Source: a virus (Duplodnaviria > Heunggongvirae > Uroviricota > Caudoviricetes). Taken from it: a stretch of DNA of 33,867 nt. Each line of letters begins with the position of its first letter. Positions within the stretch are counted from its first letter, which is position 1. The notes beneath the pieces were generated by a model, which made no database searches, was not told the DNA's origin, and saw only the letters and a program-made list of their open reading frames with translations. Made by a program: the position numbers and the translations under genes. Below, one piece after another: positions 4,167-33,867 of this stretch. The DNA lies in IMG/VR virus record IMGVR_UViG_2778261506_000006; one strand, written 5' to 3'.

Positions 4167-6432
4167 AGCCTCCGGGCGTTGTGTCCCTCCGTCAGCATTT
4201 GCCGCAGGCACCGGTAAGACGTTTACCGGTGCTTATGCATGGAACGCGCCACGCGAGGCCGTCGGGCGCGAAAGACCCCTTACACGTGACGAGATGCGTC
4301 AGGTGCAAGGTGTTTTATCCACGATTAACCGCCTGCCTTACTTTTTGCGCTCGCTGTTTACTTCACGCTATGACTACATCCGGCGCAATAAAAGCCCGGT
4401 GCACGGGTTTTATTTCCTCACATCCACTTTTCAGCGTCGTTTATGGCCGCGCATTGAGCGTGTGAATCAGCGCCATGAAATGAACACCGACGCGTCGTTA
4501 CTGTTTCTGGCAGAGCGTGACCACTATGCGCGCCTGCCGGGAATGAATGACAAGGAGCTGAAAAAGTTTGCTGCCCGTATCTCATCGCAGCTTTTCATGA
4601 TGTATGAGGAACTCAGCGATGCCTGGGTGGATGCGCATGGCGAAAAAGAATCGCTGTTTACGGATGAGGCGCAGGCTCACCTGTATGGTCATGTTGCTGG
4701 CGCTGCACGTGCTTTCAATATTTCCCCTCTCTACTGGAAAAAATACCGTAAAGGGCAGATGACCACGAGGCAGGCATATTCTGCCATTGCCCGTCTGTTT
4801 AACGATGAGTGGTGGACTCATCAGCTTAAAGGCCAGCGTATGCGCTGGCATGAGGCGTTACTGATTGCTGTCGGGGAGGTCAATAAAGACCGTTCTCCTT
4901 ATGCCAGTAAACATGCCATTCGTGATGTGCGCGCGCGCCGCCAGGCAAATCTGGAATTTCTTAAATCGTGTGACCTTGAAAACAGGGAAACCGGCGAACG
5001 CATCGACCTTATCAGTAAGGTTATGGGCAGTATTTCTAATCCAGAAATTCGCCGGATGGAGCTGATGAACACCATTGCCGGTATTGAGCGTTACGCCGCC
5101 GCAGAGGGTGATGTGGGGATGTTTATCACGCTGACCGCGCCGTCAAAGTATCACCCGACACGTCAGGTCGGAAAAGGCGAAAGTAAAGCCGTCCAGCTAA
5201 ATCACGGCTGGAACGATGAGGCATTTAATCCAAAGGATGCGCAGCGTTATCTCTGCCGCATCTGGAGCCTGATGCGCACGGCATTCAAGGATAATGATTT
5301 ACAGGTCTACGGTTTGCGTGTCGTCGAGCCACACCACGACGGAACGCCGCACTGGCATATGATGCTTTTTTGTAATCCACGCCAGCGTAACCAGATTATT
5401 GAAATCATGCGTCGCTACGCGCTCAAAGAGGATGGCGACGAAAGAGGAGCTGCGCGAAACCGTTTTCAGGCAAAACATCTTAACCGGGGCGGTGCTGCGG
5501 GATATATCGCGAAATACATTTCAAAAAACATCGACGGCTATGCACTGGATGGTCAGCTCGATAACGACACCGGCAGGCCGCTGAAAGACACTGCAGCGGC
5601 TGTTACCGCATGGGCGTCAACGTGGCGCATCCCGCAATTTAAAACGGTTGGCCTGCCGACAATGGGGGCTTACCGTGAACTACGCAAATTGCCTCGCGGC
5701 GTCAGCATTGCTGATGAGTTTGACGAACGCGTTGAGGCTGCACGTGCCGCCGCAGACAGTGGTGATTTTGCGTTGTATATCAGCGCACAGGGTGGGGCAA
5801 ATGTTCCGCGTGATTGCCAGACTGTCAGAGTCGCCCGTAGCCCGTCGGATGACGTTAACGAGTACGAGGAAGAAGTCGAGAGAGTGGTCGGCATTTACGC
5901 GCCGCATCTCGGCGCGCGTCATATTCATATCACCAGAACGACGGACTGGCGCATTGTGCCGAAAGTTCCGGTCGTTGAGCCTTTGACTTTAAAAAGCGGC
6001 ATCGCCGCGCCTCGGAGTCCTGTCAATAACTGTGGAAAGCTCACCGGTGGTGATACTTCGTTACCGGCTCCCACACCTTCTGAGCACGCCGCAGCAGTGC
6101 TTAATCTGGTTGATGACGGTGTTATCGAATGGAATGACACGGAGGTCGTGAGGGCGCTCAGGGGGGCATTAAAACACGACCTGAGAACACCAAATCGTCA
6201 GCAAAGAAACGGAAGCCCGTTAAAACCACATGAAATTGCACCATCGGCCAGACTGACCCGGTCGGAAAGAATGCAAATTACCCGTATCCGCGTTGACCTT
6301 GCTCAGAACGGTATCAGGCCGCAGCGATGGGAGCTTGAGGCGCTGGCGCGTGGCGCGACCGTAAATTATTACGGGAAATCTTTCAATTATCAGGTCGCTG
6401 ATGAGTGGCCTGGATTTTTGTTACCCATTTGA
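4156..6432 (+). CDS. A: Replication initiation protein A (rolling-circle HUH endonuclease); start uncertain (ATG 4156, or TTG 4147 giving 761 aa, or TTG 4114)
   Basis: About 760 aa; HUH-type motif PHWHMMLF and active-site tyrosine region AGYIAKYISKNIDGY; position after orf83. Confidence 0.88.
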   Translation: MAVKASGRCVPPSAFAAGTGKTFTGAYAWNAPREAVGRERPLTRDEMRQVQGVLSTINRLPYFLRSLFTSRYDYIRRNKSPVHGFYFLTSTFQRRLWPRIERVNQRHEMNTDASLLFLAERDHYARLPGMNDKELKKFAARISSQLFMMYEELSDAWVDAHGEKESLFTDEAQAHLYGHVAGAARAFNISPLYWKKYRKGQMTTRQAYSAIARLFNDEWWTHQLKGQRMRWHEALLIAVGEVNKDRSPYASKHAIRDVRARRQANLEFLKSCDLENRETGERIDLISKVMGSISNPEIRRMELMNTIAGIERYAAAEGDVGMFITLTAPSKYHPTRQVGKGESKAVQLNHGWNDEAFNPKDAQRYLCRIWSLMRTAFKDNDLQVYGLRVVEPHHDGTPHWHMMLFCNPRQRNQIIEIMRRYALKEDGDERGAARNRFQAKHLNRGGAAGYIAKYISKNIDGYALDGQLDNDTGRPLKDTAAAVTAWASTWRIPQFKTVGLPTMGAYRELRKLPRGVSIADEFDERVEAARAAADSGDFALYISAQGGANVPRDCQTVRVARSPSDDVNEYEEEVERVVGIYAPHLGARHIHITRTTDWRIVPKVPVVEPLTLKSGIAAPRSPVNNCGKLTGGDTSLPAPTPSEHAAAVLNLVDDGVIEWNDTEVVRALRGALKHDLRTPNRQQRNGSPLKPHEIAPSARLTRSERMQITRIRVDLAQNGIRPQRWELEALARGATVNYYGKSFNYQVADEWPGFLLPI

Positions 6433-6692
6433 GTAAAAATGCAGCGTGATTTTATATGCCTTTGAATGGATTATGCGAAGCGCCTCTAAGGCAGATGAGG
6501 AGCAATAGCATGCTGAAGTAGAAGGCTAAATTGTATTGAATCGCTAGCATGTAATTTAAGGCAGCTATTTGATTCGAGTCATAAAAGAGCATCTATTTCG
6601 GCTAATAAAACCATTGCGAGTGACCTTTTGTCGAAGCATAATTCATCTCGAGCGAAGTCTTGCTAGTCTTTCATCGGAATGATGACAGGCGC

Positions 6693-6722
6693 AAAAAAAC
6701 CACCCTGGCAGGTGGTTTTTTT
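6693..6722. terminator. Bidirectional rho-independent terminator (A7-ccaccc-tggca-ggtgg-T7)
   Basis: GC stem flanked by A-run upstream and T-run downstream; downstream of gene A (+) and of the small minus-strand ORF. Confidence 0.7.
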
Positions 6723-6734
6723 GTTTGAAGCATA

Positions 6735-6848
6735 CTAAAGAATAATACTTACATGGATATTACTGACGTTTACTGACAAACCACTTGGACTACCATATGG
6801 ATAGCCAAAGAGGGCCAGAACGAGAATGCAGTAATAGCACTTCTTCAT
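6735..6848 (-). CDS. Putative 37-aa hydrophobic small protein (MKKCYYCILVLALFGYPYGSPSGLSVNVSNIHVSIIL)
   Basis: ATG at 6848 (minus) preceded by AGGAGGAG; ends just before the bidirectional terminator; not in the supplied track (below 60 aa). Confidence 0.35.
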   Translation of the reverse strand: MKKCYYCILVLALFGYPYGSPSGLSVNVSNIHVSIIL

Positions 6849-7418
6849 ATCTCCTCCTGTAAGCAGAGGGCAATTTCCGCCGATATATGCGCTTCTAAGG
6901 CGGAGTTACTATTTAGCGAAGTCTTGCCCTGAAATAATGCTCTGTTTAAACGCAAAGTGATCTGGCATATCACCGAACAGAGAGCCTGAACAACACAACA
7001 TATAGTATGTCGTTGTTTCTGGTTGCATTTTATGTTGTGTAATACTGGTTTTGCATCAAGGATGTTTGAGCTTTTTTTGATATAGCTCAAAGTAAAAAGC
7101 AGGGACTACGGATGATAAGGTATTGAAAGCAATGTAAATTTTTTAAAGTTATTGGTGGCTAAAAAATGCACGATTTCAATATGGCGGACTTAAATAAGCA
7201 ATTAAAAAAGTCATAAATATCACTAAAATCATGGTGTTACGTTTTTTGTGGGAGCTGCGGTGACGCTTAAGTTGATTTGTCATTAAATAAGCCGTGCATG
7301 CAACAAGTGAATGTTTTTGCATGCGTCGGGGATGCCCGTTCCCGCTGCTTGCGGTCAGAGCTGGTGCGGATCCATAGTATCTATGCAACTGCATTAAAAC
7401 CGCCACATGAAGCGGGCG

Positions 7419-7437
7419 GGCGAGGCGGGGAAAGCAC
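7419..7437. other. cos: cos site: 19-nt P2 cohesive-end sequence GGCGAGGCGGGGAAAGCAC
   Basis: Exact match to the P2/P4 cohesive end as I remember it; lies between A and Q as expected for a P2 prophage. Confidence 0.65.
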
Positions 7438-7543: not shown

Positions 7544-8845
7544 ATGGAAAATATAAAGATTGATAAGTTTCTCACTATTCAAAAAGTTGATATTCCTCTT
7601 AAGAAAGTGAATATATTTATTGGGCCTCAGGCACAGGGGAAAAGTGTCATTGCAAAGCTAATAAAATATTTTAAAGATTATCCTATGGATATACTACGAG
7701 CTTCAACAGAGGGTAAAACTAAAAGAGACATATTGAAGGAGCAAAAGAATAAGTTTAGTAAAATTTTCCCTCAGCAGTATTGGGCTGATGATGAGTTTTT
7801 TATTGAGTATAGTAATAAGCACTATTGGGTGCGGATTACTAATCGAAAAAATAGCAAAGGGTCATTGAAAATAGCCCTTTCTGAGAATTTAACGAAGACG
7901 ATTGCTAAACTTCGTTTGATTGTACGAAAGGATTTAGATGAAAATATTGAGAATTCACTTGCAGAAAGCGTTACGAGAAGACGTAAACGCGGAATTGAAC
8001 ATGAATTGCGAGTATGTCTTTCTCTAGGATTGTTTTCAGAACCAGAAACAAAGCTTGAAAGTGTTTTTTATATCCCCGCAGGGCGCTCTTTTTTTGCTAA
8101 TTTGCAAAAAAATGTGTTTTCATTTTTATCCAGTAGTATAGAAATTGACTACTTTTTGACAGAGTTTGGTTCTCTGTATGAACAAACAAAAAAATTATTT
8201 AACCAAGATTACATGATTAGGATGCTTAGGGGGGCTGTGCCTCAACATGTTAATAAACTTGTGGAGGAGTTGATTTGCGGAAAATATATAACAGAAAAGG
8301 GTGAGGATTTTATTCGTCATGCTGCTAAGAAGACGAATCTTAACAACTCGAGCTCAGGGCAGCAAGAAGCGTTACCAATGGCTTTAATGTTATCCTCATG
8401 GCCGTATTTACAGTCTATGACTAGTAAGAGTTTTATTATTGAGGAGCCGGAGGCTCATCTGTTTCCTTCTGCCCAAGCAAAAGTTGTATCTTTAATAGCC
8501 TCAGCGTATAACCAAGCAGAAAGCTATTGTAGCTATACAATAACAACACATAGTCCATATATTCTAAGTGCCTTCAATAATTTGATTCAAGCAGGTAATG
8601 CATTGAAGTGTATTAAGGGCAAGAATAATACCGATATCGAACGCTTATATAAGCTTGTTCCAGAGTCTCAAATTATTGATTTTGATGATGTGACAGCTTA
8701 TATGGTTAATGCTGGGAAAGTGACGGAAATACTGGATTCCGAACTAAATATATTAGATGCGAATGAAATAGATAGGATTTCCTCTATTTTTTCAGAGACT
8801 TTTGATGCATTGATTGATATCGAATATTCGGCTACTGTGAATTAG
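7544..8845 (+). CDS. AAA15/ABC-type ATPase (OLD/AriA/PtuA-like N-terminal ATPase fold), 433 aa; candidate defence-system ATPase
   Basis: Walker A GPQAQGKS, signature-like LSSGQQEALPMALML, Walker B/D-loop FIIEEPEAHLFP, H-loop TTHSPYIL; strong SD AAGGAG 5 nt before ATG; AT-rich relative to phage core. Confidence 0.8.
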   Translation: MENIKIDKFLTIQKVDIPLKKVNIFIGPQAQGKSVIAKLIKYFKDYPMDILRASTEGKTKRDILKEQKNKFSKIFPQQYWADDEFFIEYSNKHYWVRITNRKNSKGSLKIALSENLTKTIAKLRLIVRKDLDENIENSLAESVTRRRKRGIEHELRVCLSLGLFSEPETKLESVFYIPAGRSFFANLQKNVFSFLSSSIEIDYFLTEFGSLYEQTKKLFNQDYMIRMLRGAVPQHVNKLVEELICGKYITEKGEDFIRHAAKKTNLNNSSSGQQEALPMALMLSSWPYLQSMTSKSFIIEEPEAHLFPSAQAKVVSLIASAYNQAESYCSYTITTHSPYILSAFNNLIQAGNALKCIKGKNNTDIERLYKLVPESQIIDFDDVTAYMVNAGKVTEILDSELNILDANEIDRISSIFSETFDALIDIEYSATVN

Positions 8846-8853
8846 GTGATTGA

Positions 8854-9291
8854 ATGTGTAAAAATTGCAAAGGAAAAACAAAAAATAAAATCATTGTGCT
8901 ATCTGATAAAGGAACGTCAACGCAATTGTCAGTCACAAATGATAATGAGTTGGAAGTTGAGCATAAGTTAATAGATGGTTGCGCTATTGTTGTTGGAGAG
9001 CGGTGTGATCATTATTTGAAGATTTATAACAATCAGGATGTTTCACATCTTTTTGTTGAACTTAAAGGAAGTGATGTTGAAAAAGCTGTTAAACAGATAG
9101 TGACAACTTTAAAGTCAGGTGTGATTAATGTAGGTGCTAAAGAAAAAAAACATGGTGCTATTGTTAGCACTAGGAATCCGCTAAACTCAACAGAAACCAA
9201 TAGGTTAAAGAAGAAAATTCTTTTGAGTGACGGAGTGAATTTGCATTTCTATAAAATGAAGGCGCAGCAAAAAATAACTTCTTTTACATGA
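8854..9291 (+). CDS. Small 145-aa partner protein, possible nuclease-like effector (Cys pairs, D-H...NN...H and D...ELK motifs); function unknown
   Basis: ATG 8854 eight nt after ATPase stop with SD AGGTGA; internal repeated motif I(I/L)(V/L)LSD; no homolog recognised by eye. Confidence 0.7.
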   Translation: MCKNCKGKTKNKIIVLSDKGTSTQLSVTNDNELEVEHKLIDGCAIVVGERCDHYLKIYNNQDVSHLFVELKGSDVEKAVKQIVTTLKSGVINVGAKEKKHGAIVSTRNPLNSTETNRLKKKILLSDGVNLHFYKMKAQQKITSFT

Positions 9292-9304
9292 AGTGTTCTC
9301 TTGT

Positions 9305-9328
9305 ACAGGCATGCATTTGCATGCCTGT
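9305..9328 (+). terminator. Perfect inverted repeat acaggcatgca / tgcatgcctgt (11-bp arms, 2-nt centre) after the cassette; probable terminator with weak U-tract
   Basis: Read from sequence; followed by cgtgtaatctttt. Confidence 0.45.
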
Positions 9329-9394
9329 CGTGTAATCTTTTACACTATATTTGTGTTGGTTCTAATCTTGTTATGTGTTTGTTTCGGTGATGGG

Positions 9395-10414
9395 TCATAA
9401 TGAATAAGTTCGAAAGCGAAATACATCTTCGCCAACCCAACAGTTAATTTCTTTACATCGCTCTTGGAGGAACGTTAGCTCGTTGCGTACAAAGACTTGT
9501 GCTGCTTTTGTTACATCTCCAAATCCTCCTGTGTTGTTGGGCATCATTCCTATCATTTGGGGAGGCACGCGATGAGCACTCATTAGATCTTCAGCACTTG
9601 CTTTTTTGATATTAAAAAAATCGTCCTTCGTTGCCACTTCACTGAGCGGGATAATTTTAATGCCGTCGGCTTTCCCCTGCGGGGCATAGAGAAACAGATT
9701 TTTAAAGTTATTGCGGCCTTTCGACTTAACCATGTTTTCGCGAAGCATTTCGATATCGTTGCGATCCTGCACGGCATCAGTGACGTACATGATGTATCCG
9801 GCATGAGCGCCGTTTTCGTAATACTTGCGGCGGAACAGCGTGGCCGACTCATTCAGCCAGGCAGAGTTAAGGGCGCTGAGATATTCGGGCAGGCCGTACA
9901 GCTCCTGATTAATATCCGGCTCCAGCAGGTGAAACACGGAACCGGGCGCGAAGGCTGTCGGCTCGTTGAAGGACGGCACCCACCAGTAAACATCCTCTTC
10001 CACACCACGGCGGGTATATTTTGCCGGTGAGGTTTCCAGCCTGATAACTTTACCGGTGGTGCTGTAACGCTTTTCCAGAAACGCATTACCGAACACCAGA
10101 AAATCCAGCACAAAGCGGCTGAAATCCTGCTGGGAAAGCCACGGATGCGGGATAAATGTCGACGCCAGAATATTGCGTTTGACGTAAATCGGGGAGCTGT
10201 GATGCACGGCAGCACGCAGGCTTTTTGCCAGACCGGTAAAGCTGACCGGTGGCTCATACCATCTGCCGTTACTGATGCACTCGACGTAATCCAGAATGTC
10301 ACGGCGGTCGAGCACCGGCACCGGCTCACCAAAGGTGAATGCCTCCATTTTCGGGGCGCTGGCGGTCATTGTTTTTGCCGCAGGTTGCGGTGTTTTCCCT
10401 TTTTTCTTGCTCAT
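9395..10414 (-). CDS. Q: Portal protein Q
   Basis: 339 aa; first gene leftward of P; overlapping start/stop with P; matches P2 Q. Confidence 0.92.
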   Translation of the reverse strand: MSKKKGKTPQPAAKTMTASAPKMEAFTFGEPVPVLDRRDILDYVECISNGRWYEPPVSFTGLAKSLRAAVHHSSPIYVKRNILASTFIPHPWLSQQDFSRFVLDFLVFGNAFLEKRYSTTGKVIRLETSPAKYTRRGVEEDVYWWVPSFNEPTAFAPGSVFHLLEPDINQELYGLPEYLSALNSAWLNESATLFRRKYYENGAHAGYIMYVTDAVQDRNDIEMLRENMVKSKGRNNFKNLFLYAPQGKADGIKIIPLSEVATKDDFFNIKKASAEDLMSAHRVPPQMIGMMPNNTGGFGDVTKAAQVFVRNELTFLQERCKEINCWVGEDVFRFRTYSL

Positions 10415-12186
10415 CAGTAAAACTCCAGAATGGTGGATGTCAGCGGGGTGCTGATACCGGCGGTGAGTGGCTCATTTAACAGGGCATGCATGGTCGCCCA
10501 GGCGAGGTCGGCGTGGCTGGCTTCCTCGCTGCGGCTGGCCTCATAGGTGGCGCTGCGTCCGCTGCTGGTCATGGTCTTGCGGATAGCCATAAACGAGCTG
10601 GTGATGTCGGTGGCGCTGACGTCATATTCCAGACAGCCACGGCGGATAACGTCTTTTGCCTTGAGCACCATTGCGGTTTTCATTTCCGGCGTGTAGCGGA
10701 TATCGCGCGCGGCGGGATAGAACGAGCGAACGAGCTGGAACACGCCGACACCGAGGCCGGTGGCATCAATTCCGATGTATTCGACGTTGTATTTTTCGGT
10801 GAGTTTGCGGATGGATTCAGCCTGGGTGGCAAAGTCCATGCCTTTCCACTGGTGACGCTCAAGTATTCTGAATTTGCCACCGGCCACCACCGGCGGTGCC
10901 AGCACCACGCATCCGGCGCTGTCGCCACGGTGTGACGGGTCGTAACCAATCCAGACCGGGCGGGAGCCGAACGGATTGGCGGCAAAGGGTGCATAGTCTT
11001 CCCATTCTTCCAGCGTGTCGACCATGCAGCGTTGCAGCTCCTCGAACGGGAACACCGATGCCTTGTCGTCAACAAATTCACACATGAACAGGTTTTTAAA
11101 ATCGTCGGCGCTGTTTTCGCGTTTGAGCTGCTCAATGTCGAACAGCGTGCAGCCGCCTTTCAGGGCGTCCTCAATGGTGACAATCTGCCGCCACTGGCCG
11201 TCCGCACAGAGAAGCCCACCGGCAAGGGCGTTATGACTGACGTCGATTTCCACGCGTTCGGCGGCGCTGGCGCGTCCCCGGTTGAACAGTTCACCCGACC
11301 AGAACGGGTAGGCGTCGTGCGCCAGCGTGGACGGGGTGGAGAAATAGGTCGAGCGCAGGTGACTCTGTGAGGCCATACCTGATGCCACCTTACGCAGTAC
11401 CTGAAAATTCGGGATCCAGAAAATCTCGTCGACGTACAGGTCGCCGTTATGGCTCTGCGCGGTGTTGGAGTTGGTGCCGAGAAAAATCAGTTTTGCGCCG
11501 TTATTGCCCAGAACAATCGGGTCACCGGTCAGGTCAACGTCAACCAGACGGGCAAAGGCGATGATGTATTCACGGAATACATACGCCTGCGTTTTACTGG
11601 CCGACAGAAAAATCTGGTTATGACCGGTTTTCAGGGCACGCAGCAGCGCCTCGCGGGAAAAATAAAACGTCGCGCCAATCTGGCGGGATTTCAGGATATC
11701 GCGGATGCGGTGCTCAAGCCCGGCGCGATACCAGTGCAACTGATAGTCGAAAGACTGCTCAAAGAAAATCTGCTCCAGCTTTTCGATGGCCTCGTCACTG
11801 AAAAAATTCTTTTTCGGTTTGTGCCGCCCGCCTTTGTTGCGGTTAGCGACGTTCGGATTAAGGTCTGCCTCGTTGCCGGTCTGACTGTAACGGTTAACCC
11901 GTGCCAGTCGTTCAATCTGGCGTCCCAGCAGGTCAATTTCCTTGAAGTCACCGCCGGTTTTCTGCGGTTTGATGATGAGCCGGGTCAGCCGCGCTTCCAG
12001 ACTCATTTCGACACGGCTGATGGGGGCAACGCTGTCCCAGCCGTCGCGCTGTTTCCAGCTCTGCACCGTCGGGCGTTTCATCTGCAACATGGCGGCAATC
12101 TGCGGCACGGAAAACCCCTGCCAGTACAGCAGCGCCGCCTGACGACGCGGGTCGTGTAAAAGAGTGGTGTCTGTGGTGATGGTCAT
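10414..12186 (-). CDS. P: Terminase large (ATPase) subunit P; start at ATG 12186 (track start 12216 is TTG)
   Basis: 590 aa from MTITTDTT; size and position match P2 gpP. Confidence 0.92.
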   Translation of the reverse strand: MTITTDTTLLHDPRRQAALLYWQGFSVPQIAAMLQMKRPTVQSWKQRDGWDSVAPISRVEMSLEARLTRLIIKPQKTGGDFKEIDLLGRQIERLARVNRYSQTGNEADLNPNVANRNKGGRHKPKKNFFSDEAIEKLEQIFFEQSFDYQLHWYRAGLEHRIRDILKSRQIGATFYFSREALLRALKTGHNQIFLSASKTQAYVFREYIIAFARLVDVDLTGDPIVLGNNGAKLIFLGTNSNTAQSHNGDLYVDEIFWIPNFQVLRKVASGMASQSHLRSTYFSTPSTLAHDAYPFWSGELFNRGRASAAERVEIDVSHNALAGGLLCADGQWRQIVTIEDALKGGCTLFDIEQLKRENSADDFKNLFMCEFVDDKASVFPFEELQRCMVDTLEEWEDYAPFAANPFGSRPVWIGYDPSHRGDSAGCVVLAPPVVAGGKFRILERHQWKGMDFATQAESIRKLTEKYNVEYIGIDATGLGVGVFQLVRSFYPAARDIRYTPEMKTAMVLKAKDVIRRGCLEYDVSATDITSSFMAIRKTMTSSGRSATYEASRSEEASHADLAWATMHALLNEPLTAGISTPLTSTILEFY

Positions 12187-12359
12187 GAATACCTCGCCGT
12201 GATGAATACACGGCAAGGCTACTGAGTCGCGCCCCGCGATTCGCTAAGGTACTGTTGTGTCAGTGATAAGCCATCCGGGACTGATGGCGGAGGATGCGCA
12301 TCGTCGGGAAACTGATGCCGACATGTGACTCCTCTAATCACTATTCAGGACTCCTGACA
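12187..12359. promoter_or_regulatory. Divergent late promoter region between P and O (Ogr-dependent promoters expected)
   Basis: Intergenic region between divergent late operons; exact Ogr site not resolved by eye. Confidence 0.4.
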
Positions 12360-13214
12360 ATGGCAAAAAAAGTCTCAAAATTCTTTCGTATCGGCGTTGA
12401 GGGTGACACCTGTGACGGGCGTGTCATCAGTGCGCAGGATATTCAGGAAATGGCCGAAACCTTTGACCCGCGTGTCTATGGTTGCCGCATTAACCTGGAA
12501 CATCTGCGCGGCATCCTGCCTGACGGTATTTTTAAGCGTTATGGCGATGTGGCCGAACTGAAGGCCGAAAAGATTGACGATGATTCGGCGCTGAAAGGCA
12601 AATGGGCGCTGTTTGCGAAAATCACCCCGACCGATGACCTTATCGCGATGAACAAGGCCGCGCAGAAGGTCTACACCTCAATGGAAATTCAGCCGAACTT
12701 TGCCAACACCGGCAAATGTTATCTGGTGGGTCTGGCCGTCACCGATGACCCGGCAAGCCTCGGCACGGAATACCTGGAATTCTGCCGCACGGCAAAACAC
12801 AACCCCCTGAACCGCTTCAAATTAAGCCCTGAAAACCTGATTTCAGTGGCAACGCCTGTTGAGCTGGAATTTGAAGACCTGCCTGAAACCGTGTTCACCG
12901 CCCTGACCGAAAAGGTGAAATCCATTTTTGGCCGCAAACAGGCCAGCGATGACGCCCGTCTGAATGACGTGCATGAAGCGGTGACCGCTGTTGCTGAACA
13001 TGTGCAGGAAAAACTGAGCGCCACTGAGCAGCGCCTCGCTGAGATGGAAAACGCCTTTTCCGCACTTAAGCAGGAGGTGACTGACAGGGCGGATGAAACC
13101 AACCAGGCATTCACCCGCCTGAAAAACAGTCTCGACAACACCGAAAGTCTGACCCAGCAGCGCCGCAGCAAGGCCACCGGTGGTGGCGGTGACGCCCTGA
13201 TGACGAACTGCTGA
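12360..13214 (+). CDS. O: Capsid scaffolding protein O (284 aa)
   Basis: ATG 12360 (MAKKVSKF); length equals P2 gpO. Confidence 0.9.
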   Translation: MAKKVSKFFRIGVEGDTCDGRVISAQDIQEMAETFDPRVYGCRINLEHLRGILPDGIFKRYGDVAELKAEKIDDDSALKGKWALFAKITPTDDLIAMNKAAQKVYTSMEIQPNFANTGKCYLVGLAVTDDPASLGTEYLEFCRTAKHNPLNRFKLSPENLISVATPVELEFEDLPETVFTALTEKVKSIFGRKQASDDARLNDVHEAVTAVAEHVQEKLSATEQRLAEMENAFSALKQEVTDRADETNQAFTRLKNSLDNTESLTQQRRSKATGGGGDALMTNC

Positions 13215-13272
13215 CCGGCGTCAGTCAGTCCGGGAAAACCTTCACGATTACCCCTTAATTTCAGGAACAAAT

Positions 13273-14346
13273 ATGCGCCAGGAAACCCGTTTTAAATTTA
13301 ATGCTTACCTGTCCCGTGTTGCCGAACTGAACGGCATCGACGCCGGTGATGTGTCGAAAAAATTCACCGTTGAACCGTCGGTCACCCAGACCCTGATGAA
13401 CACCATGCAGGAGTCATCTGACTTTCTGACCCGCATCAACATTGTGCCGGTCAGCGAAATGAAAGGGGAAAAAATTGGTATCGGTGTCACCGGCCCCATT
13501 GCCAGCACCACCGACACCGCCGGTGGCACCGAGCGTCAGCCGAAGGACTTCTCGAAGCTGGCGTCCAACAAGTACGAATGCGACCAGGTTAACTTCGATT
13601 TTTATATCCGCTACAAAACGCTGGACCTGTGGGCGCGTTATCAGGATTTCCAGCTCCGTATCCGTAACGCCATTATCAAACGCCAGTCCCTTGATTTCAT
13701 CATGGCCGGTTTTAACGGCGTGAAGCGTGCCGAAACCTCTGACCGCAGCAGTAACCCGATGCTGCAGGATGTGGCGGTCGGCTGGCTGCAGAAATACCGC
13801 AATGAAGCCCCGGCGCGCGTGATGAGCAAGGTCACTGACGAGGAAGGCCGCACCACCTCTGAGGTCATCCGCGTGGGTAAGGGCGGTGATTATGTAAGCC
13901 TCGATGCACTGGTGATGGATGCGACCAACAACCTGATTGAGCCGTGGTATCAGGAAGACCCTGACCTTGTGGTGATTGTGGGGCGTCAGCTACTGGCGGA
14001 CAAGTATTTCCCCATCGTCAACAAGGAGCAGGACAACAGCGAAATGCTGGCCGCTGACGTCATCATCAGCCAGAAACGCATCGGCAACCTGCCAGCGGTA
14101 CGCGTCCCGTACTTCCCGGCGGATGCGATGCTCATCACGAAGCTGGAAAACCTGTCCATCTACTACATGGATGACAGCCATCGCCGCGTGATTGAGGAAA
14201 ACCCGAAACTCGACCGCGTGGAGAACTACGAGTCAATGAACATTGATTACGTGGTGGAGGACTACGCCGCCGGTTGTCTGGTGGAAAAAATTAAGGTCGG
14301 TGATTTCTCCACACCGGCTAAGGCGACCGCAGAGCCGGGAGCGTAA
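13273..14346 (+). CDS. N: Major capsid protein N (357 aa)
   Basis: Length and position identical to P2 gpN. Confidence 0.93.
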   Translation: MRQETRFKFNAYLSRVAELNGIDAGDVSKKFTVEPSVTQTLMNTMQESSDFLTRINIVPVSEMKGEKIGIGVTGPIASTTDTAGGTERQPKDFSKLASNKYECDQVNFDFYIRYKTLDLWARYQDFQLRIRNAIIKRQSLDFIMAGFNGVKRAETSDRSSNPMLQDVAVGWLQKYRNEAPARVMSKVTDEEGRTTSEVIRVGKGGDYVSLDALVMDATNNLIEPWYQEDPDLVVIVGRQLLADKYFPIVNKEQDNSEMLAADVIISQKRIGNLPAVRVPYFPADAMLITKLENLSIYYMDDSHRRVIEENPKLDRVENYESMNIDYVVEDYAAGCLVEKIKVGDFSTPAKATAEPGA

Positions 14347-21052: not shown

Positions 21053-23239
21053 ATGAGCACAAAATTCAAAACCGTTATCACCACTGCCGGTGCAGCAAAG
21101 CTGGCAGCGGCAACCGCGCCGGGAGGGCGGAAGGTCAACATTACCACGATGGCCGTCGGGGATGGCGGTGGTAAATTGCCTGTCCCGGATGCCGGACAGA
21201 CCGGGCTTATCCACGAAGTCTGGCGACATGCGCTGAACAAAATCAGCCAGGACAAACGAAACAGTAATTATATTATCGCAGAGCTGGTTATTCCGCCGGA
21301 GGTGGGCGGTTTCTGGATGCGTGAGCTTGGCCTGTACGATGATGCTGGAACGTTAATTGCCGTGGCGAACATGGCTGAAAGTTATAAGCCAGCTCTTGCC
21401 GAAGGCTCAGGGCGTTCGCAGACCTGCCGCATGGTCATCATCGTCAGCAGTGTGGCCTCAGTGGCGCTGACCATTGACACCACAACGGTGATGGCAACGC
21501 AGGATTACGTTGATGACAAAATTGCAGAACATGAACAGTCACGACGTCACCCGGACGCCTCGCTGACCGCCAAAGGTTTTACTCAGTTAAGCAGTGCGAC
21601 CAACAGCACGTCTGAAACACTCGCCGCAACACCAAAAGCGGTAAAAGCAGCATATGACCTTGCTAACGGGAAATACACTGCACAGGACGCCACCACCGCG
21701 CGAAAAGGCCTTGTCCAGCTCAGTAGCGCCACCAACAGCGATTCTGAAACGCTTGCGGCAACGCCAAAGGCGGTTAAGACAGCGTATGACCTTGCTAACG
21801 GGAAATACACTGCACAGGATGCCACCACAGCGCGAAAAGGTCTTGTCCAGCTCAGTAGCGCCACCAACAGTGATTCTGAAACGCTGGCTGCAACACCAAA
21901 AGCGGTGAAGTCTGCCTATGACAATGCTGAAAAACGTCTTCAGAAAGATCAGAACGGTGCGGATATTCCGGGAAAGGATACCTTCACGAAAAATATCGGT
22001 GCCTGTCGTGCTTATAGCGGCGCTTTGAGCACTGAAGCCGGAAACTGGACAACCGCTCAGTTTATTGAATGGCTGGATTCCCGTGGTGCATTTAATCATC
22101 CGTACTGGATGTGCAAAGGCTCCTGGTCATATGCAAATAACAAAATCATTACGGATACCGGATGTGGTGATATCCACCTGGCTGGTTGTGTCGTCGAGGT
22201 CATGGGAACTAAATCTGCAATCACTATCCGAGTGACCACGCCGACAACATCAAGTGGTGGCGGTACAACCAGCGCGCAATTCACTTACATAAATCATGGG
22301 GACGGCTACTCCCCCGGCTGGCGTCGTGACTGGAATCGTCAGGGCGACTCAATGACCGGAACGATTAATCAGGATGGCGGAAGCCAGAATGCCTATATGT
22401 CTACGGCCTTATGTTCAGGCACCAGAGGCGGCAAAAAATATCTCAGAAAGTTTCGTGGTGGAGAAGGAGATACTATCTGGCATGAAACAGTTCAGGGCGG
22501 GGTAATTCGCTGGGCGACAGGAAACAATGACGCTCAGGAAGAATTATCACTCAGCTCCGCTTATGGTCTCCGTTCAAGAGGTGAAATTACATCACTCAGT
22601 GCTAATGGTCTGCGCATTGCTTATGGCAATTATGGATTCTTTATCAGGAATGATGGCGGCAGCACTTATTTTATGTTGACTAAATCAGGTGACAGATTAG
22701 GTACTTATAATAATTTAAGACCACTGATTATAAATGATGCCACGGGTGCTGTATCAATGGGGCATGGCCTGAGTGTTACTGGTGATATTGTCTCAAGTAC
22801 CAAAGTACGTGCCGGTAGCGGGAAAAAGTTCACGGTCAGCAGCAGCAATACATCCACGAAGGAAGCCGCATTCAATTTGTGGGGAAACTCAAGTCGTCCT
22901 GTGGTGGCTGAATTAGGTGATGATGCAGGCTGGCATTTTTACAGTCAGAGAAATACAGATAACAGCATCACTTTTGCTGTTAACGGGCAGGTATCACCAT
23001 CTAACTATAGTAATTTTGATTCACGCTATGTCCGGGATATCCGGCTTGGTGGTGCTGCCACATACAAACCTGCGAACAATGGCATGACATGGACACATCA
23101 GGCACCGTCCGGGTGTGTATATTCCGGCATTATTGTTCAGGATACCGGCTCAAACTCTGCCGATAACATTGGTGGCGTATATTACAGACCGGTGCAGAAA
23201 TACATTAACGGGACTTGGTATAACGTGGCGCAGGTATAA
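21053..23239 (+). CDS. H: Tail fibre protein H (728 aa) with conserved N-terminus, internal 44-aa tandem repeats and a divergent AT-rich C-terminal receptor-binding region
   Basis: Position after I, followed by chaperone G; repeat QLSSATNS.SETLAATPKAVK.AYDLANGKYTAQDATTARKGLV occurs about 2.6 times. Confidence 0.9.
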   Translation: MSTKFKTVITTAGAAKLAAATAPGGRKVNITTMAVGDGGGKLPVPDAGQTGLIHEVWRHALNKISQDKRNSNYIIAELVIPPEVGGFWMRELGLYDDAGTLIAVANMAESYKPALAEGSGRSQTCRMVIIVSSVASVALTIDTTTVMATQDYVDDKIAEHEQSRRHPDASLTAKGFTQLSSATNSTSETLAATPKAVKAAYDLANGKYTAQDATTARKGLVQLSSATNSDSETLAATPKAVKTAYDLANGKYTAQDATTARKGLVQLSSATNSDSETLAATPKAVKSAYDNAEKRLQKDQNGADIPGKDTFTKNIGACRAYSGALSTEAGNWTTAQFIEWLDSRGAFNHPYWMCKGSWSYANNKIITDTGCGDIHLAGCVVEVMGTKSAITIRVTTPTTSSGGGTTSAQFTYINHGDGYSPGWRRDWNRQGDSMTGTINQDGGSQNAYMSTALCSGTRGGKKYLRKFRGGEGDTIWHETVQGGVIRWATGNNDAQEELSLSSAYGLRSRGEITSLSANGLRIAYGNYGFFIRNDGGSTYFMLTKSGDRLGTYNNLRPLIINDATGAVSMGHGLSVTGDIVSSTKVRAGSGKKFTVSSSNTSTKEAAFNLWGNSSRPVVAELGDDAGWHFYSQRNTDNSITFAVNGQVSPSNYSNFDSRYVRDIRLGGAATYKPANNGMTWTHQAPSGCVYSGIIVQDTGSNSADNIGGVYYRPVQKYINGTWYNVAQV
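21584..21922 (+). repeat. Tandem repeat inside H: 132-bp unit in about 2.6 copies (21584-21715, 21716-21847, partial 21848-21922)
   Basis: Near-identical nucleotide units read directly; in-frame. Confidence 0.85.
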
Positions 23240-23242
23240 TTT

Positions 23243-23770
23243 ATGCAGCATTTGATAAATATAACGGCAGGTAATCCAAAAACGGTTGAACAATATCAAT
23301 TGACAAAAGACTTTGATGTTGTCTGGTTTTTTTCAGAAGATGGTAAGAACTGGTACGAAGAACAAAAGTATTTTGCTGATGACACGCTAAAAATAGCGTA
23401 CGACAAAGATAATATCATCCGCTATGTGGAAAAGGATGCGACAGCTATCAGACCGGATGGATTAAGTGTTGTTGAAGTGGCGGATATTACTGCTAACCGG
23501 CGGGCGAACATTTCAGGGAACTGGATGTTTAAGGACGGCAAAGTGATTAAACGCATTTATACGGCAGAGGAATTGCAGCAGCAGGCAGAAAACCGGAAAG
23601 CCAGACTTCTTGCAGATGCTGAATTCGTGATTTTGCCGCTGGAGCGCGCGGTCAGACTGAACATGGCAACAGATGAGGAGCGTAGCCGACTGGAAGCATG
23701 GGAACGCTACAGCGTTCTGGTCAGTCGTGTGGATCCTGCAAATCCTGAATGGCCGGAAATGCCGCAATAA
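23243..23770 (+). CDS. G: Tail fibre assembly chaperone G (175 aa)
   Basis: Size and position as P2 gpG; AT-rich like the H C-terminus. Confidence 0.88.
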
Positions 23771-23955: not shown

Positions 23956-25266
23956 TTAACTAAAAATTTCGCTCAACCCAGTGACAAATATTTCTCTGAT
24001 CTTACGGCGGAAAATATCACCAAAGTCAGAGTTTGAAACATCCGTGCGCCAGATAGTTTTAGCAACACCCTGCCGATCTTCTGAAAAGACAGTAATGATG
24101 AGTTCATCAGCAATAATTTGAAAGTCAAATGTAGGTCGGAAACGAGGATACGAAGTACCAGGGGTATCAAATCCTATGTTTAACCAAGAATGACGGGGCT
24201 CAGATTTATAGTATCCAGTTTCAACTCCAGACAGATGACCTCCGATCTCTTCTATGATGTTATTACGAACTGAAATTATTTCGCTTACAGCTTCCCTGAT
24301 TTTACTCATGTAAACACTATTTATCTCAGCACCTTGAGCTTCCAACCTTTTTTTGATTTCTAAAAGAATCTCACCATCCGCCAATGTAGGTTTATTTTCG
24401 CTCATCCTCTTCAACTCCTTTCTCAACTCTTGTACCGTCTGAAATCTACTATTCAATAGCGGTGAAAAACCACGGTCAAACAATGCAAGCATTGAAAGTG
24501 CCCAACCATTAGTAGCGGCATGAATACTTTCCGATACTCCATCGCGTTGGTGAGGTCGACGCCCAGTCTCAGATTCTTCTAAAACATACGGGCTTTTTCC
24601 TGTTAATACGTAAAATAAAATCCCTACTACAAAGGTAATATCGCTTCGAGGATCTCGTTTATTAGGACTGTCTGGCGCAAGTTCATTGAGCCTTAAGAAA
24701 CGATTGCCTAGCTCTTGGCCATTATCAGTAGCATGAGCGTTCTTATCTTGAGGTTGCCATGCGAGACCGAAATCTACCAATACAGCATCAGCCGGGTTAT
24801 TACACCGGAGTATAATATTATCAGGTTTGATATCTCTGTGAATGCCATCACGAGAATGATAGTATTCGACTATATCCAACAGGCGATCTATCATATCAAC
24901 CGCATCTTGAAATGACATAGCCCCATTTTCCTCTATGTACTCACGTAATGTTGGGCCTTCAACTATTTCTGTAACTAAGTAAAGTTTGTAATTCATTTGT
25001 TCATAACGATGGCAATTACTTTCTATAAGAGATGGAATTCCCGGATGTTCATAGGTATAGAGAGCGACTGCTTCGCGATACATACGAGCTCGTCGCTCAG
25101 GGTCTTTCTGGCTTTTCAATACTTTTAAAAATGCTCTCATGTCAGAACGAACCACTGGACACGCCACGCCTTGGCCACCGCTTTTCTTGTTACCATCCGC
25201 TACCCAGCCTGCCGCCTTCGCATCCAATTTGTCATTCCACACGCCACCAACCATTTTCTCCCCCAT
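23956..25266 (-). CDS. Hanks-type Ser/Thr protein kinase with about 180-aa C-terminal domain of unknown function; cargo at the P2 Z/fun position
   Basis: Catalytic loop HRDIKPDNIIL and DFGLA motif in N-terminal half; antisense to flanking late genes; AT-rich; ATG 25266 (alternative ATG 4 codons in). Confidence 0.85.
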   Translation of the reverse strand: MGEKMVGGVWNDKLDAKAAGWVADGNKKSGGQGVACPVVRSDMRAFLKVLKSQKDPERRARMYREAVALYTYEHPGIPSLIESNCHRYEQMNYKLYLVTEIVEGPTLREYIEENGAMSFQDAVDMIDRLLDIVEYYHSRDGIHRDIKPDNIILRCNNPADAVLVDFGLAWQPQDKNAHATDNGQELGNRFLRLNELAPDSPNKRDPRSDITFVVGILFYVLTGKSPYVLEESETGRRPHQRDGVSESIHAATNGWALSMLALFDRGFSPLLNSRFQTVQELRKELKRMSENKPTLADGEILLEIKKRLEAQGAEINSVYMSKIREAVSEIISVRNNIIEEIGGHLSGVETGYYKSEPRHSWLNIGFDTPGTSYPRFRPTFDFQIIADELIITVFSEDRQGVAKTIWRTDVSNSDFGDIFRRKIREIFVTGLSEIFS

Positions 25267-25630: not shown

Positions 25631-26821
25631 ATGAGTGACTATCATCACGGCGTGCAGGTGCTGGAGATTAACGACGGCACCCGCGTCATTTCCACCGTAT
25701 CCACCGCCATTGTTGGCATGGTCTGCACGGCCAGCGATGCGGATGCGGAAATCTTCCCCCTCAATAAACCGGTGCTGATTACCAATGTGCAGAGCGCAAT
25801 TGCAAAGGCCGGTAAAAAAGGCACGCTGGCGGCGTCGTTACAGGCCATCGCTGACCAGTCAAAACCGGTCACCGTTGTTGTGCGCGTGGAAGACGGCACC
25901 GGCGACGACGAGGAAACGAAACTCGCGCAGACCGTTTCCAATATTATCGGCACCACCGACGAAAACGGTCAGTACACCGGACTGAAAGCCCTGATGGGGG
26001 CTGAGTCGGTTACCGGCGTTAAACCGCGCATTCTCGGCGTACCGGGACTGGACACCAAAGAGGTCGCCGTCGCACTGGCATCGGTATGCCAGGAACTGAA
26101 TGCCTTCGGGTATATCAGCGCATGGGGTTGTAAAACCATTTCCGAGGTGAAAGCCTACCGCCAGAATTTCAGCCAGCGTGAGCTGATGGTTATCTGGCCG
26201 GATTTCCTCGCATGGGATACGGTTACCAGTACCACCGCCACCGCGTATGCCACCGCCCGTGCGCTGGGTCTGCGCGCTAAAATCGACCAGGAGCAGGGCT
26301 GGCATAAAACGCTGTCCAACGTCGGGGTGAACGGTGTTACCGGCATCAGTGCATCCGTCTTCTGGGATTTGCAGAAGCCAGGCACTGATGCTGACCTGCT
26401 GAACGAGGCAGGCGTCACAACGCTGGTTCGCCGCGACGGTTTCCGTTTCTGGGGTAACCGTACCTGCTCTGATGACCCGCTGTTCCTCTTTGAAAGCTAC
26501 ACACGCACCGCGCAGGTACTGGCCGACACGATGGCTGAGGCGCACATGTGGGCTATTGATAAGCCCATCACCGCAACGCTGATTCGCGACATCATTGACG
26601 GCATCAATGCCAAATTCCGTGAACTGAAAAACAACGGTTATATCGTGGATGGCACATGCTGGTTCAGCGAAGAATCCAACGATGCGGAAACCCTCAAGGC
26701 CGGAAAACTGTATATCGACTACGACTATACCCCGGTGCCTCCTCTCGAAAACCTGACCCTGCGCCAGCGTATTACTTCCAGATACTTGGCAAGTCTGGTC
26801 ACTTCGGTTAACAGCAATTAA
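25631..26821 (+). CDS. FI: Tail sheath protein FI (396 aa)
   Basis: Size and position identical to P2 gpFI. Confidence 0.93.
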   Translation: MSDYHHGVQVLEINDGTRVISTVSTAIVGMVCTASDADAEIFPLNKPVLITNVQSAIAKAGKKGTLAASLQAIADQSKPVTVVVRVEDGTGDDEETKLAQTVSNIIGTTDENGQYTGLKALMGAESVTGVKPRILGVPGLDTKEVAVALASVCQELNAFGYISAWGCKTISEVKAYRQNFSQRELMVIWPDFLAWDTVTSTTATAYATARALGLRAKIDQEQGWHKTLSNVGVNGVTGISASVFWDLQKPGTDADLLNEAGVTTLVRRDGFRFWGNRTCSDDPLFLFESYTRTAQVLADTMAEAHMWAIDKPITATLIRDIIDGINAKFRELKNNGYIVDGTCWFSEESNDAETLKAGKLYIDYDYTPVPPLENLTLRQRITSRYLASLVTSVNSN

Positions 26822-32334: not shown

Positions 32335-32361
32335 AAAAAATAAGCCCGTGTAAGGGAGATT
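32335..32361. repeat. attR: attR core: second copy of the 27-bp att direct repeat
   Basis: Identical to 478-504. Confidence 0.85.
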
Positions 32362-32505
32362 ACACAGGCTAAGGAGGTGGTTCCTGGTACAGCTAGCATT
32401 TTATGGGTTATGTTTTTCAGCGAAACGGATGATAACCTTAATAAATGCAGCTGTATGTGATCGGTTTCTAAGAATTTTCCATCCGGGAAAAATAATCGAA
32501 ATTAA

Positions 32506-33867
32506 TCACTTACCGTGTGGGTTACGCGTGGTTTCCCCGGAGAAATTACGCATCAGCAGAGCGTAATTGAGCTCAAGATCCTGCGGGACCGGGAGCCACA
32601 CAGTATAACCATCGCCTGGTGCGACCGGCATCGCTTCACCTTTGGCGTTTTCCATGTGCTCAAGGGTAAAGTTAATGTTGCCTTGCGGCGTCATCAGCTC
32701 AAGGCTGTCGCCAACGGAGAATTTATTTTTCACCGCTACCGCCGCGAGGTCCCCCTTGCGCTCACCGGTAAACTCACCAACAAACTGCTGGCGGTCAGAA
32801 ACTGAATAACCGTATTCGTAGTTCTGATAATCGTCGTGAGTATGACGACGCAGGAAACCTTCGGTATAGCCACGATGCGCCAGACCTTCCAGAGTTTCCA
32901 GCAGGCTGGTATCGAACGGTTTGCCCGCAGCGGCGTCATCGATAGCTTTACGGTAAACCTGTGCGGTGCGTGCGCAATAGTAGAAAGATTTAGTACGGCC
33001 TTCGATTTTCAGCGAATGCACGCCCATTTTGGTCAGGCGTTCTACATGGGCGATGGCGCGCAGATCTTTCGAGTTCATGATGTAAGTGCCGTGCTCATCT
33101 TCAAACGCGGTCATATACTCGCCCGGACGCTGGGCTTCTTCGATCATAAACACTTTGTCGGTTGGCGCGCCGATACCCAGCGTCGGCTCAACATTTTGCA
33201 CCGGAATCGGCTCGTACTTGTGTACGATGTTGCCAACGTCATCTTCTTTCCCTTCCTGGACGTTGTACTCCCAGCGGCAGGCGTTGGTGCAGGTACCCTG
33301 GTTCGGATCGCGCTTGTTGATATAGCCAGAGAGCAGGCAGCGACCGGAGTAGGCCATGCACAGTGCGCCGTGAACGAAGATCTCGATCTCCATATCCGGC
33401 ACCTGATTGCGGATCTCTTCAATCTCTTCCAGCGACAGCTCGCGAGAGAGGATCACGCGGGTCAGGCCCATTTGCTGCCAGAATTTCACCGTCGCCCAGT
33501 TTACGGCGTTAGCCTGCACCGAGAGGTGGATCGGCATTTCAGGGAAGTGCTCACGCACCAGCATAATCAGCCCTGGATCGGACATAATCAGCGCATCCGG
33601 CCCCATTTCCACCACCGGTTTCAGGTCACGGATAAAGGTTTTCAGCTTGGCGTTGTGCGGTGCAATGTTGACCACGACATAAAACTTTTTCCCCAGCGCG
33701 TGGGCTTCATTGATGCCGAGCTGAAGATTTTCGTGGTTGAATTCGTTGTTGCGCACACGCAGGGAGTAACGCGGCTGGCCCGCATAAACAGCATCTGCGC
33801 CATAAGCGAAAGCGTAACGCATATTTTTCAGCGTTCCCGCCGGGGAAAGGAGTTCCGGTTTAAACAT
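32506..33867 (-). CDS. yegQ: Host U32-family peptidase YegQ (also called RlhA), 453 aa
   Basis: Full-length ORF starting at the window edge (ATG 33867); recognised from sequence and neighbourhood (ogr-proximal prophage end abuts yegQ as in the K-12 ogrK/yegZ locus). Confidence 0.85.
   Translation of the reverse strand: MFKPELLSPAGTLKNMRYAFAYGADAVYAGQPRYSLRVRNNEFNHENLQLGINEAHALGKKFYVVVNIAPHNAKLKTFIRDLKPVVEMGPDALIMSDPGLIMLVREHFPEMPIHLSVQANAVNWATVKFWQQMGLTRVILSRELSLEEIEEIRNQVPDMEIEIFVHGALCMAYSGRCLLSGYINKRDPNQGTCTNACRWEYNVQEGKEDDVGNIVHKYEPIPVQNVEPTLGIGAPTDKVFMIEEAQRPGEYMTAFEDEHGTYIMNSKDLRAIAHVERLTKMGVHSLKIEGRTKSFYYCARTAQVYRKAIDDAAAGKPFDTSLLETLEGLAHRGYTEGFLRRHTHDDYQNYEYGYSVSDRQQFVGEFTGERKGDLAAVAVKNKFSVGDSLELMTPQGNINFTLEHMENAKGEAMPVAPGDGYTVWLPVPQDLELNYALLMRNFSGETTRNPHGK

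Follow-up and report, generated by a model that had tools for sequence, protein, structure and literature searches.

A P2-like prophage of E. coli carries, beside cos, a catalogued wonB gene encoding the predicted nuclease of a WonAB abortive-infection pair

The stretch of DNA analysed here (the window; 33,867 nt, IMG/VR record IMGVR_UViG_2778261506_000006) reads as an almost complete prophage of P2 type from E. coli, in which an integrase, a replication endonuclease and a portal gene follow one another in prophage order. Between the last two lies a pair of genes that we call wonA and wonB, after the defence system to which they are assigned below. The features that frame this pair are:

584–1597: integrase, in its place in the prophage gene order
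4114–6432: replication endonuclease gpA, upstream of wonAB in the gene order
7419–7437, + strand: presumed P2/P4 core cos, GGCGAGGCGGGGAAAGCAC, an exact 19-nt match with 0 expected in shuffles
7544–8845, + strand: wonA, encoding a 433-aa ABC ATPase of the OLD family; putative sensor/activator, by extension from V. cholerae
8844–8849, + strand: AGGTGA, a Shine-Dalgarno-like element ahead of wonB that overlaps the stop codon of wonA (8843–8845)
8854–9291, + strand: wonB, encoding 145 aa from an ATG start; predicted variant PD-(D/E)xK nuclease, putative effector
9303–9345, unstranded: tandem hairpins, a probable terminator, between the convergent wonB and portal genes
9395–10414, − strand: portal gpQ, beyond wonAB and followed by terminase and tail genes

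The string at 7419–7437, which we take to be the P2 cos core, forms the left edge of a cargo slot, so that wonAB has cos on one side and the 3' end of gpQ, the portal gene, on the other. Our assumption about this string draws in addition on its presence in cos-proximal clones of P4 (Rousset et al., 2022, Table S2A), and the region running from gpA across cos to gpQ is a hotspot of anti-phage systems (Rousset et al., 2022). In this P2-like prophage, the pair occupies the defence hotspot near cos as cargo. The GC content of the wonA and wonB block, at about 34–39% versus 52–58% in its flanks, is typical of acquired cargo. Of 5426 complete E. coli genomes, 10 have a 2-kb segment with wonAB, always beside a phage portal gene, and the closest copy of this segment, in E. 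coli E24377A, shares 99.8% DNA identity with that of the window. Near-identical DNA was not found in the phage collection, and searches of the phage and plasmid collections at the protein level gave two weak matches each and nothing more.

A preliminary description of this DNA, made from its letters, had placed the small open reading frame exactly at 8854–9291 and given its product as 145 aa. This reading frame is a real gene, because its product keeps its length in other enterobacteria at 61–73% identity, because 96 of its 145 residues are retained in the Kosakonia copy although synonymous sites (dS) are saturated, and because it is preceded by the Shine-Dalgarno-like AGGTGA. Only 8 nt lie between the wonA stop and the wonB start, and this gap, together with the overlap of AGGTGA and the wonA stop codon, makes translational coupling of the two genes likely. 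Downstream of wonB, the tandem hairpins fold as RNA at −23.5 kcal/mol (z −5.7; 0 of 200 shuffles as good) and are probably a terminator, a role that we infer, since a scan for consensus terminators did not flag them. A promoter scan returned sites no more frequently than in shuffles.

WonAB ('WASA OLD-ABC ATPase nuclease') was described by Adams et al. (2025, Nat Microbiol, PMC12137116) as a pair of genes in the V. cholerae WASA-1 prophage that acts by abortive infection. Hit 2 in Supplementary Table 4 of that paper is NC_009801.1, E. coli E24377A, with ECE24377A_RS06440 as WonA and ECE24377A_RS06445 as WonB, and the 145-aa product encoded in the window is letter for letter the ECE24377A_RS06445 WonB printed there. 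Over the stretch of the ATPase shown in the table, E24377A has D for A of the window WonA at about residue 110. Membership in the MacSyFinder model of WonAB is read from this hit table, by way of the identical WonB and of the E24377A ATPase entered there as WonA. When compared with the V. cholerae proteins, whose sequences were taken from the same supplementary table, the window WonA shows 37% identity across 412 aa (E 1e-75) and the window WonB 39% across about 80 aa (BLASTP, E 1e-12), with the similarity of the two WonB proteins confined in this search to residues 9–86.

The same proteins are found in two further catalogues. WonB of the window matches the PADLOC model PDC-M29B (1.6e-4), as do 70 of 79 members of the WonB family, and since WonA and WonB of V. 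cholerae match PDC-M29A/B as well, PDC-M29 and WonAB are one and the same family; PDC entries in PADLOC are unpublished candidates without an assigned function. In addition, the window WonB is identical over its full length to protein 1 of P2-hotspot system #81 (Rousset et al., 2022, Table S5B), and the ATPase of the window matches that of system #81 over the stretch shown in the same table. This system is labelled 'AAA_15/AAA_21' and has 45 occurrences among 18,150 P2 hotspots, with its small protein annotated merely as hypothetical (Rousset et al., 2022); it is absent from that paper's tables of cloned systems. We found no paper naming 'PDC-M29' or the RefSeq accessions, and the system is not named in the main texts of P2-hotspot papers and a language-model preprint. 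The preliminary description held that the small protein could not be assigned to a family, a view that these matches overturn: it is WonB, the 'novel REase' partner of OLD-ABC ATPases. Because the WonAB hit table already in print contains the exact protein, the finding, though real, is not new.

The wonA product matches the Pfam models AAA_15 (4.1e-20) and AAA_21 (7e-9). Its best PADLOC match is PDC-M29A (2.3e-31), with AriA second (3.1e-25); its C-terminal half matches PD-T4-4_A (1.1e-16), and the PtuA models match it weakly, at about 1e-10. The motifs of an ABC ATPase are found at the following positions:

7622–7645, + strand: Walker A of WonA, GPQAQGKS (residues 27–34); K33 aligns with V. 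cholerae K34
8351–8365, + strand: ABC signature of WonA, SSGQQ (residues 270–274), read from the sequence and its alignment to V. cholerae
8432–8461, + strand: Walker B and D-loop of WonA, FIIEEPEAHL (residues 297–306); E301 aligns with V. cholerae E300
8546–8557, + strand: H-loop of WonA, THSP (residues 335–338); H336 aligns with V. cholerae H333

R181 (in PAGRSFF) aligns with V. cholerae R182, and all four positions that were mutated in the V. cholerae protein (K34, R182, E300 and H333) are present in the WonA of the window.

For the small protein, searches of Pfam, NCBIfam and PHROGs gave no significant match, and among family libraries only PDC-M29B matched. A word-indexed search yielded 18 relatives of the window WonB, and the profile of these relatives, when run against 1.84 billion representative proteins, produced 2320 matches at E<=1e-3 (972 at E<=1e-10), nearly all of which are stand-alone proteins of 130–150 aa. 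Of the homologous loci, 13 retain upstream DNA (Kosakonia, two Prevotella, a Muribaculaceae, a Bacteroidales, an Opitutaceae and several metagenome contigs), and all 13 have a WonA homologue next to the small gene on its upstream side, in the same orientation and abutting or overlapping it, such that wonB always directly follows the gene of an OLD-family ABC ATPase; the coupling to an ATPase, already pointed out for the window, holds across these loci. This sample of loci reaches Enterobacterales, Bacteroidota, Verrucomicrobiota and metagenomes.

Residue conservation was counted over 159 members aligned to the family HMM, and the positions of interest in WonB are:

8974–9066, + strand: candidate catalytic core of WonB, from conservation, predicted secondary structure and the V. 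cholerae K71A phenotype
8974–8976, + strand: WonB D41, Asp in 159/159 members
8980–8982, + strand: WonB C43, in the region of the catalytic core
9004–9009, + strand: WonB C51-D52, conserved in 159/159 and 158/159 members, respectively, and directly before strand 53–59
9058–9066, + strand: WonB E69-L70-K71, with E69 and K71 each in 159/159 members, at the end of strand 62–70
9094–9096, + strand: WonB Q81, Gln in 159/159 members, in helix 75–87 after the ExK strand

The WonB signature is D41, D52, E69-x-K71 and Q81, all of them invariant or nearly so; N29 (157/159) and P109 (154/159) are likewise conserved. AlphaFold2 returned a model with a mean pLDDT of 92.5 and a pTM of 0.88 from a 79-sequence alignment (pLDDT 85.4 from a 14-sequence alignment). 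In this model, four strands make up the N-terminal part and lead into a loop on which D41, C43 and C51 lie; D52 opens a beta-hairpin (53–59/62–70) and E69-x-K71 closes it, and the C-terminal part consists of helix 75–87 with Q81, then a strand, a helix and further strands. The motif layout of PD-(D/E)xK enzymes is present, with D52 before one strand, E69-x-K71 in the next strand of the hairpin and a helix thereafter, and beta-strands stand in place of the usual N-terminal helix of the core. The first ranks in Foldseek are BamHI, EcoT38I, PaqCI, Mus81, MspJI, FokI and Cap4, all of them weak (E>=8.8e-3, with BamHI the best), and sub-threshold Pfam matches across the family are enriched for PD-(D/E)xK families (SduA_C, SfsA, PDDEXK_9, HSDR_N and CdiA_C). 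A sequence-profile search of solved structures gave chance matches or none, and no WonB-like structure. Judged by the predicted model, WonB is a small, divergent PD-(D/E)xK (restriction-endonuclease-fold) protein without a close solved relative. Structure prediction followed by Foldseek, the check proposed in the preliminary description, brought up no confident match to a non-enzymatic fold such as an antitoxin or a DNA-binding protein.

That description had read the stretch GERCDHYLKIYNNQDVSHLFVELKG (residues 48–72) as either of two nuclease motifs, HNH or PD...ExK. All of the strings it quoted are present (IIVLSDKG from residue 13, ILLSDGVN from residue 122, CKNC at residues 2–5, and the stretch just given), as are the residues it singled out, but its numbering runs one to two too high: its D53/H54, N61, H67 and E70/K72 are D52/H53, N59/N60/Q61, H65 and E69/K71. 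An HNH nuclease would use D52-H53 as general base, N59–N61 for the structural Asn and H65 as metal ligand, with the CxxC in a zinc site as in Septu PtuB; candidate residues for these roles exist in the window sequence, and pairs of an ABC ATPase with an HNH protein, such as Septu, are known in defence. However, His occupies position 53 in only 19 of the 159 members (135 have Y, W or F) and position 65 in 13 (101 have Glu), and the columns of N59 and N60 are gaps in most of the family, from which, given the near-invariance of D52, E69 and K71, the motif is D...ExK and not HNH. Moreover, H65 falls in a beta-strand, whereas a beta-beta-alpha-metal motif would have it in the helix, Pfam and PADLOC return no HNH match, and the sole HNH-containing structure among the fold matches has a Foldseek probability of 0.04–0.06, which is at noise level. 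We reject the HNH candidate, to which we assign practically no chance, and retain the PD...ExK reading, to which the V. cholerae K71A mutant, in which function is lost, also points. A restriction-endonuclease fold might instead serve without catalysis, as an adaptor or for DNA binding, in the manner of the inactive REase domains of Menshen NsnA: inactive sensor domains of this fold exist in ABC-ATPase defence systems, and the fold matches of WonB are weak. The acidic/Lys signature that is invariant or nearly so among the 159 members is, however, absent from inactive REase domains, and K71A in V. cholerae abolishes both defence and toxicity (PMC12137116), which makes an adaptor extremely improbable. 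The earlier suggestion that the gene encodes a small effector of nuclease type with an ATPase as its partner is therefore supported, with the nuclease a predicted one. The 'internal repeat' formed by IIVLSDKG and ILLSDGVN, in contrast, is a product of chance: the best ungapped 8-mer pair in WonB is NKIIVLSD/KKKILLSD, with a BLOSUM62 score of 21, 234 of 500 shuffles equal or beat the best 8-mer self-match, and distant homologues do not keep the second copy. Except for the repeat and the numbering, the observation as a whole was real; of its interpretation, the PD-ExK half was right and the HNH half wrong.

How the pair would work is best approached from V. cholerae, where wonA and wonB are both necessary and together sufficient for protection, and where WonA mutants K34A (Walker A), E300A (Walker B), H333A (H-loop) and those at R182 abolish defence (PMC12137116). 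Infection is aborted after the onset of phage DNA replication and before capsid assembly, without lysis, and translation stops while wonB mRNA stays stable (PMC12137116). The AlphaFold3 prediction for V. cholerae has WonB sitting on WonA's C-terminal extensions in their dimerised form, Lon protease degrades WonB, and expression of WonAB in E. coli confers protection against Vequintavirinae (PMC12137116). The authors suspect tRNA or rRNA as the target of WonB (PMC12137116); our search of the literature found no identification of this target.

Carried over to the prophage studied here, these data suggest that WonA would be an ATP-dependent sensor and activator that holds WonB on its dimerised C-terminal extensions, as predicted for V. 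cholerae, and that infection would turn the WonA–WonB pair active. The active WonB nuclease, relying on K71, would then halt translation and growth without degrading the chromosome, and phage structural proteins would not be made. Our best estimate for this locus is that WonA licenses WonB to cleave some part of the translation machinery, with clearance of free WonB by Lon protease acting as a probable safety measure.

Two other mechanisms must be weighed against licensing by WonA. In a classical toxin-antitoxin arrangement, WonB would be a free toxic nuclease that WonA sequesters and that infection releases. The architecture is like that of PARIS, in which the AriA scaffold releases the AriB nuclease, Pfam calls AAA_21 a 'putative AbiEii toxin, type IV TA', and overproduction of WonB is toxic in wild-type V. 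cholerae (PMC12137116). However, the same overproduction is harmless in strains with a deletion of wonAB, a deletion of wonA or an ATPase-dead WonA, and a toxicity that appears only with active WonA argues against a simple toxin-antitoxin or release model; furthermore, an ATPase-dead WonA leads to the loss of WonB protein, and the WonAB authors themselves rule out simple sequestration (PMC12137116). We consider such an arrangement very unlikely. Direct cutting or nicking of DNA, with WonA sensing foreign DNA or DNA ends and WonB cleaving phage or host DNA as in Lamassu, Gabija and OLD, is the only rival of appreciable weight, although still an unlikely one. The best structural neighbours of WonB (FokI, BamHI, N.BspD6I and Cap4) are indeed DNA endonucleases. 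However, PD-(D/E)xK enzymes that cut RNA exist, so the substrate is not fixed by these neighbours. Replication of ICP1 was down 2.7-fold, but ICP1 DNA replication nevertheless proceeded, genomic DNA was intact and nucleoids persisted after WonB activation in V. cholerae, and the halt in translation came with wonB mRNA still stable (PMC12137116). With the licensing of WonB by WonA as the preferred mechanism, it is very probable that the reading frame at 8854–9291 is wonB, the effector of a WonAB abortive-infection system that is carried as cargo by a P2-like prophage and that would act here as it does in V. cholerae.

One feature of WonB goes beyond the main text of the WonAB paper. The N-terminal CxxC that was pointed out in the preliminary description is there, and its second cysteine, C5, is conserved in 152 of 159 members, but C2 is confined to the enterobacterial clade. 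C5, C43 and C51 occur together in 148 of 159 members. The C5/C43 pair is missing from V. cholerae WonB, and every sequence without the N-terminal Cys is also without C43 (family members P0120, P0130 and P0108, and V. cholerae WonB), a co-variation with a Fisher p of 8.6e-4 in an ungapped table with small counts. Both of the Cys-bearing segments are the least confident parts of the first (14-sequence) AlphaFold2 model, and the word 'cysteine' is absent from the main text of the WonAB paper (PMC12137116). It is conceivable, if rather doubtful, that C5/C43 and C51, joined by C2 in enterobacteria, form a site that binds metal or responds to redox state and that pins the N-terminal strand to the active-site loop; a disulfide or a shared metal site would be our guess. 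Since it is without the pair present in the great majority of members, V. cholerae WonB, so far the one WonB that has been studied, may not be fully representative, and its sequence suggests an atypical member of the family. If such a cysteine site exists, most WonBs could have a structural or regulatory level, and perhaps a substrate, beyond the published model.

Like WonAB of V. cholerae, the locus described here is a prophage-borne two-gene operon in which the gene of an OLD-type ABC ATPase (about 400–430 aa) comes first and that of a PD-(D/E)xK protein (about 140 aa) second; the Lys of WonB has the same number, K71, and the four mutated WonA positions align. The two differ in that identity is limited to 37% for WonA and 39% for the N-terminal ~80 aa of WonB, in that the host prophage is P2-like and not WASA-1, and in that WonB of the window, unlike that of V. 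cholerae, has C2 as well as the C5/C43 pair. The 'OLD-ABC ATPase + novel REase' operons of Krishnan, Burroughs, Iyer and Aravind (2020), an in-silico prediction as cited in PMC12137116 and PMC12409358, are said in PMC12137116 to encompass all WonAB homologues and to occur in 0.96% of genomes. So far as these citing papers describe such operons, WonB corresponds to their 'novel REase' partner, with about 2300 representatives of the small protein by profile search.

Likeness to PADLOC PDC-M29 and system #81 of Rousset et al. (2022) extends to both genes, which match PDC-M29A/B, and to an identical small protein in #81. The resemblance to PD-T4-4 (Vassallo et al., 2022), another operon of an ATPase and a small nuclease, lies in the ATPase, which matches PD-T4-4_A. 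The WonAB authors describe PD-T4-4 as related but with different ATPase inserts and a different C-terminal extension (PMC12137116), and the window WonB has no PD-T4-4_B match at E<=1, with V. cholerae WonB matching at merely 0.006. PARIS (AriA/AriB) and Septu (PtuA/PtuB) share with WonAB the principle of an ABC ATPase of the OLD/AAA_15 kind that regulates a bound nuclease, often on P2/P4 elements. However, AriB is a TOPRIM/DUF4435 protein that works on release, whereas WonB is of the predicted PD-(D/E)xK class, without a DUF4435 or AriB match in Pfam and PADLOC, and in V. cholerae needs active WonA for toxicity. PtuB of Septu, in turn, is an HNH protein, and WonB has no PtuB or HNH match in either library.

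WonB of this prophage is thus already known, as a published member of a defence family for which experiments in V. cholerae provide validation. Three catalogues already list the gene pair, namely the P2-hotspot table of Rousset et al. (2022), PADLOC (as PDC-M29) and the WonAB hit table, and with its family validated in this way it has little value as a discovery. The copy in the P2-like prophage is a native E. coli WonAB, which makes it a convenient allele for finding the target of WonB and the trigger of the system.

Because a CyaR/RyeE small RNA and a peptidase-U32 gene make up the host flank of the prophage in the window, the prophage insertion adjoins cyaR; at this site E. coli K-12 retains a remnant of P2 ogr.

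32338..32423, minus strand: CyaR/RyeE sRNA (Rfam, 100.7 bits)
32506..33867, minus strand: peptidase-U32 gene, yegQ-like

The prophage in the window is intact, whereas a P2-like prophage with the same wonAB in E. coli E24377A (7996..13363 of locus L001) is degraded: its portal gene is truncated, most head genes are absent, and an IS21-family element splits the tape-measure gene.

The interval of about 1 kb from the end of gpA to cos (6433..7418; GC 38-46%) contained no ORFs longer than 81 aa and gave no match in an Rfam scan at the gathering threshold, and over 6433..7270 it shares 91-94% identity with some P2-like phages, in which the sequence is annotated as 'hypothetical protein' or not at all. 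The classical tin/old position in the window appears to be empty. A kinase gene in the tail region occupies a position (Z/fun) that we regard as the second of the variable cargo slots in P2-like phages.

23956..25266, minus strand: Ser/Thr protein kinase gene, 436 aa (Pfam Pkinase, 3.3e-22)

It lies on the opposite strand, with the tail-fibre genes (21053..23770) on one side and the tail-sheath gene (25631..26821) on the other, and may be a further defence gene.

Hairpins occupy part of the 103-nt gap between wonB and the portal gene, which run convergently.

9303..9345: two adjacent hairpins

With a GC-rich 10-bp stem in the first hairpin (CAGGCATGCA/TGCATGCCTG) and a folding energy of -23.5 kcal/mol (z -5.7) for the whole segment, these hairpins are probably a terminator, perhaps a bidirectional one; a simple terminator scan did not flag them.

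Within WonB itself, three cysteines form a triad that is kept in 148 of the 159 family members aligned to the family HMM.

8866..8868: wonB codon for C5
8980..8982: wonB codon for C43
9004..9006: wonB codon for C51

Across the same family C5 and C43 are lost jointly, and the experimentally studied WonB of V. cholerae has neither of the two.

Two Prevotella genomes encode longer homologues, of about 310 aa each, in which about 160 further residues, with no match in Pfam, come after the WonB domain at the C-terminal end.

L003, 5935..6867: fused WonB homologue
L004, 5893..6819: fused WonB homologue

The Prevotella proteins represent the effector, WonB, in a fused variant form. Distant wonAB pairs were also found on metagenome contigs, one (L013) with a gene for an AIPR abortive-infection protein directly downstream, the other (L008) with a dynamin-like GTPase gene and a CdiA_C toxin-domain gene as neighbours. 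Such conflict-gene neighbours are consistent with the presence of wonAB in defence islands outside prophages.
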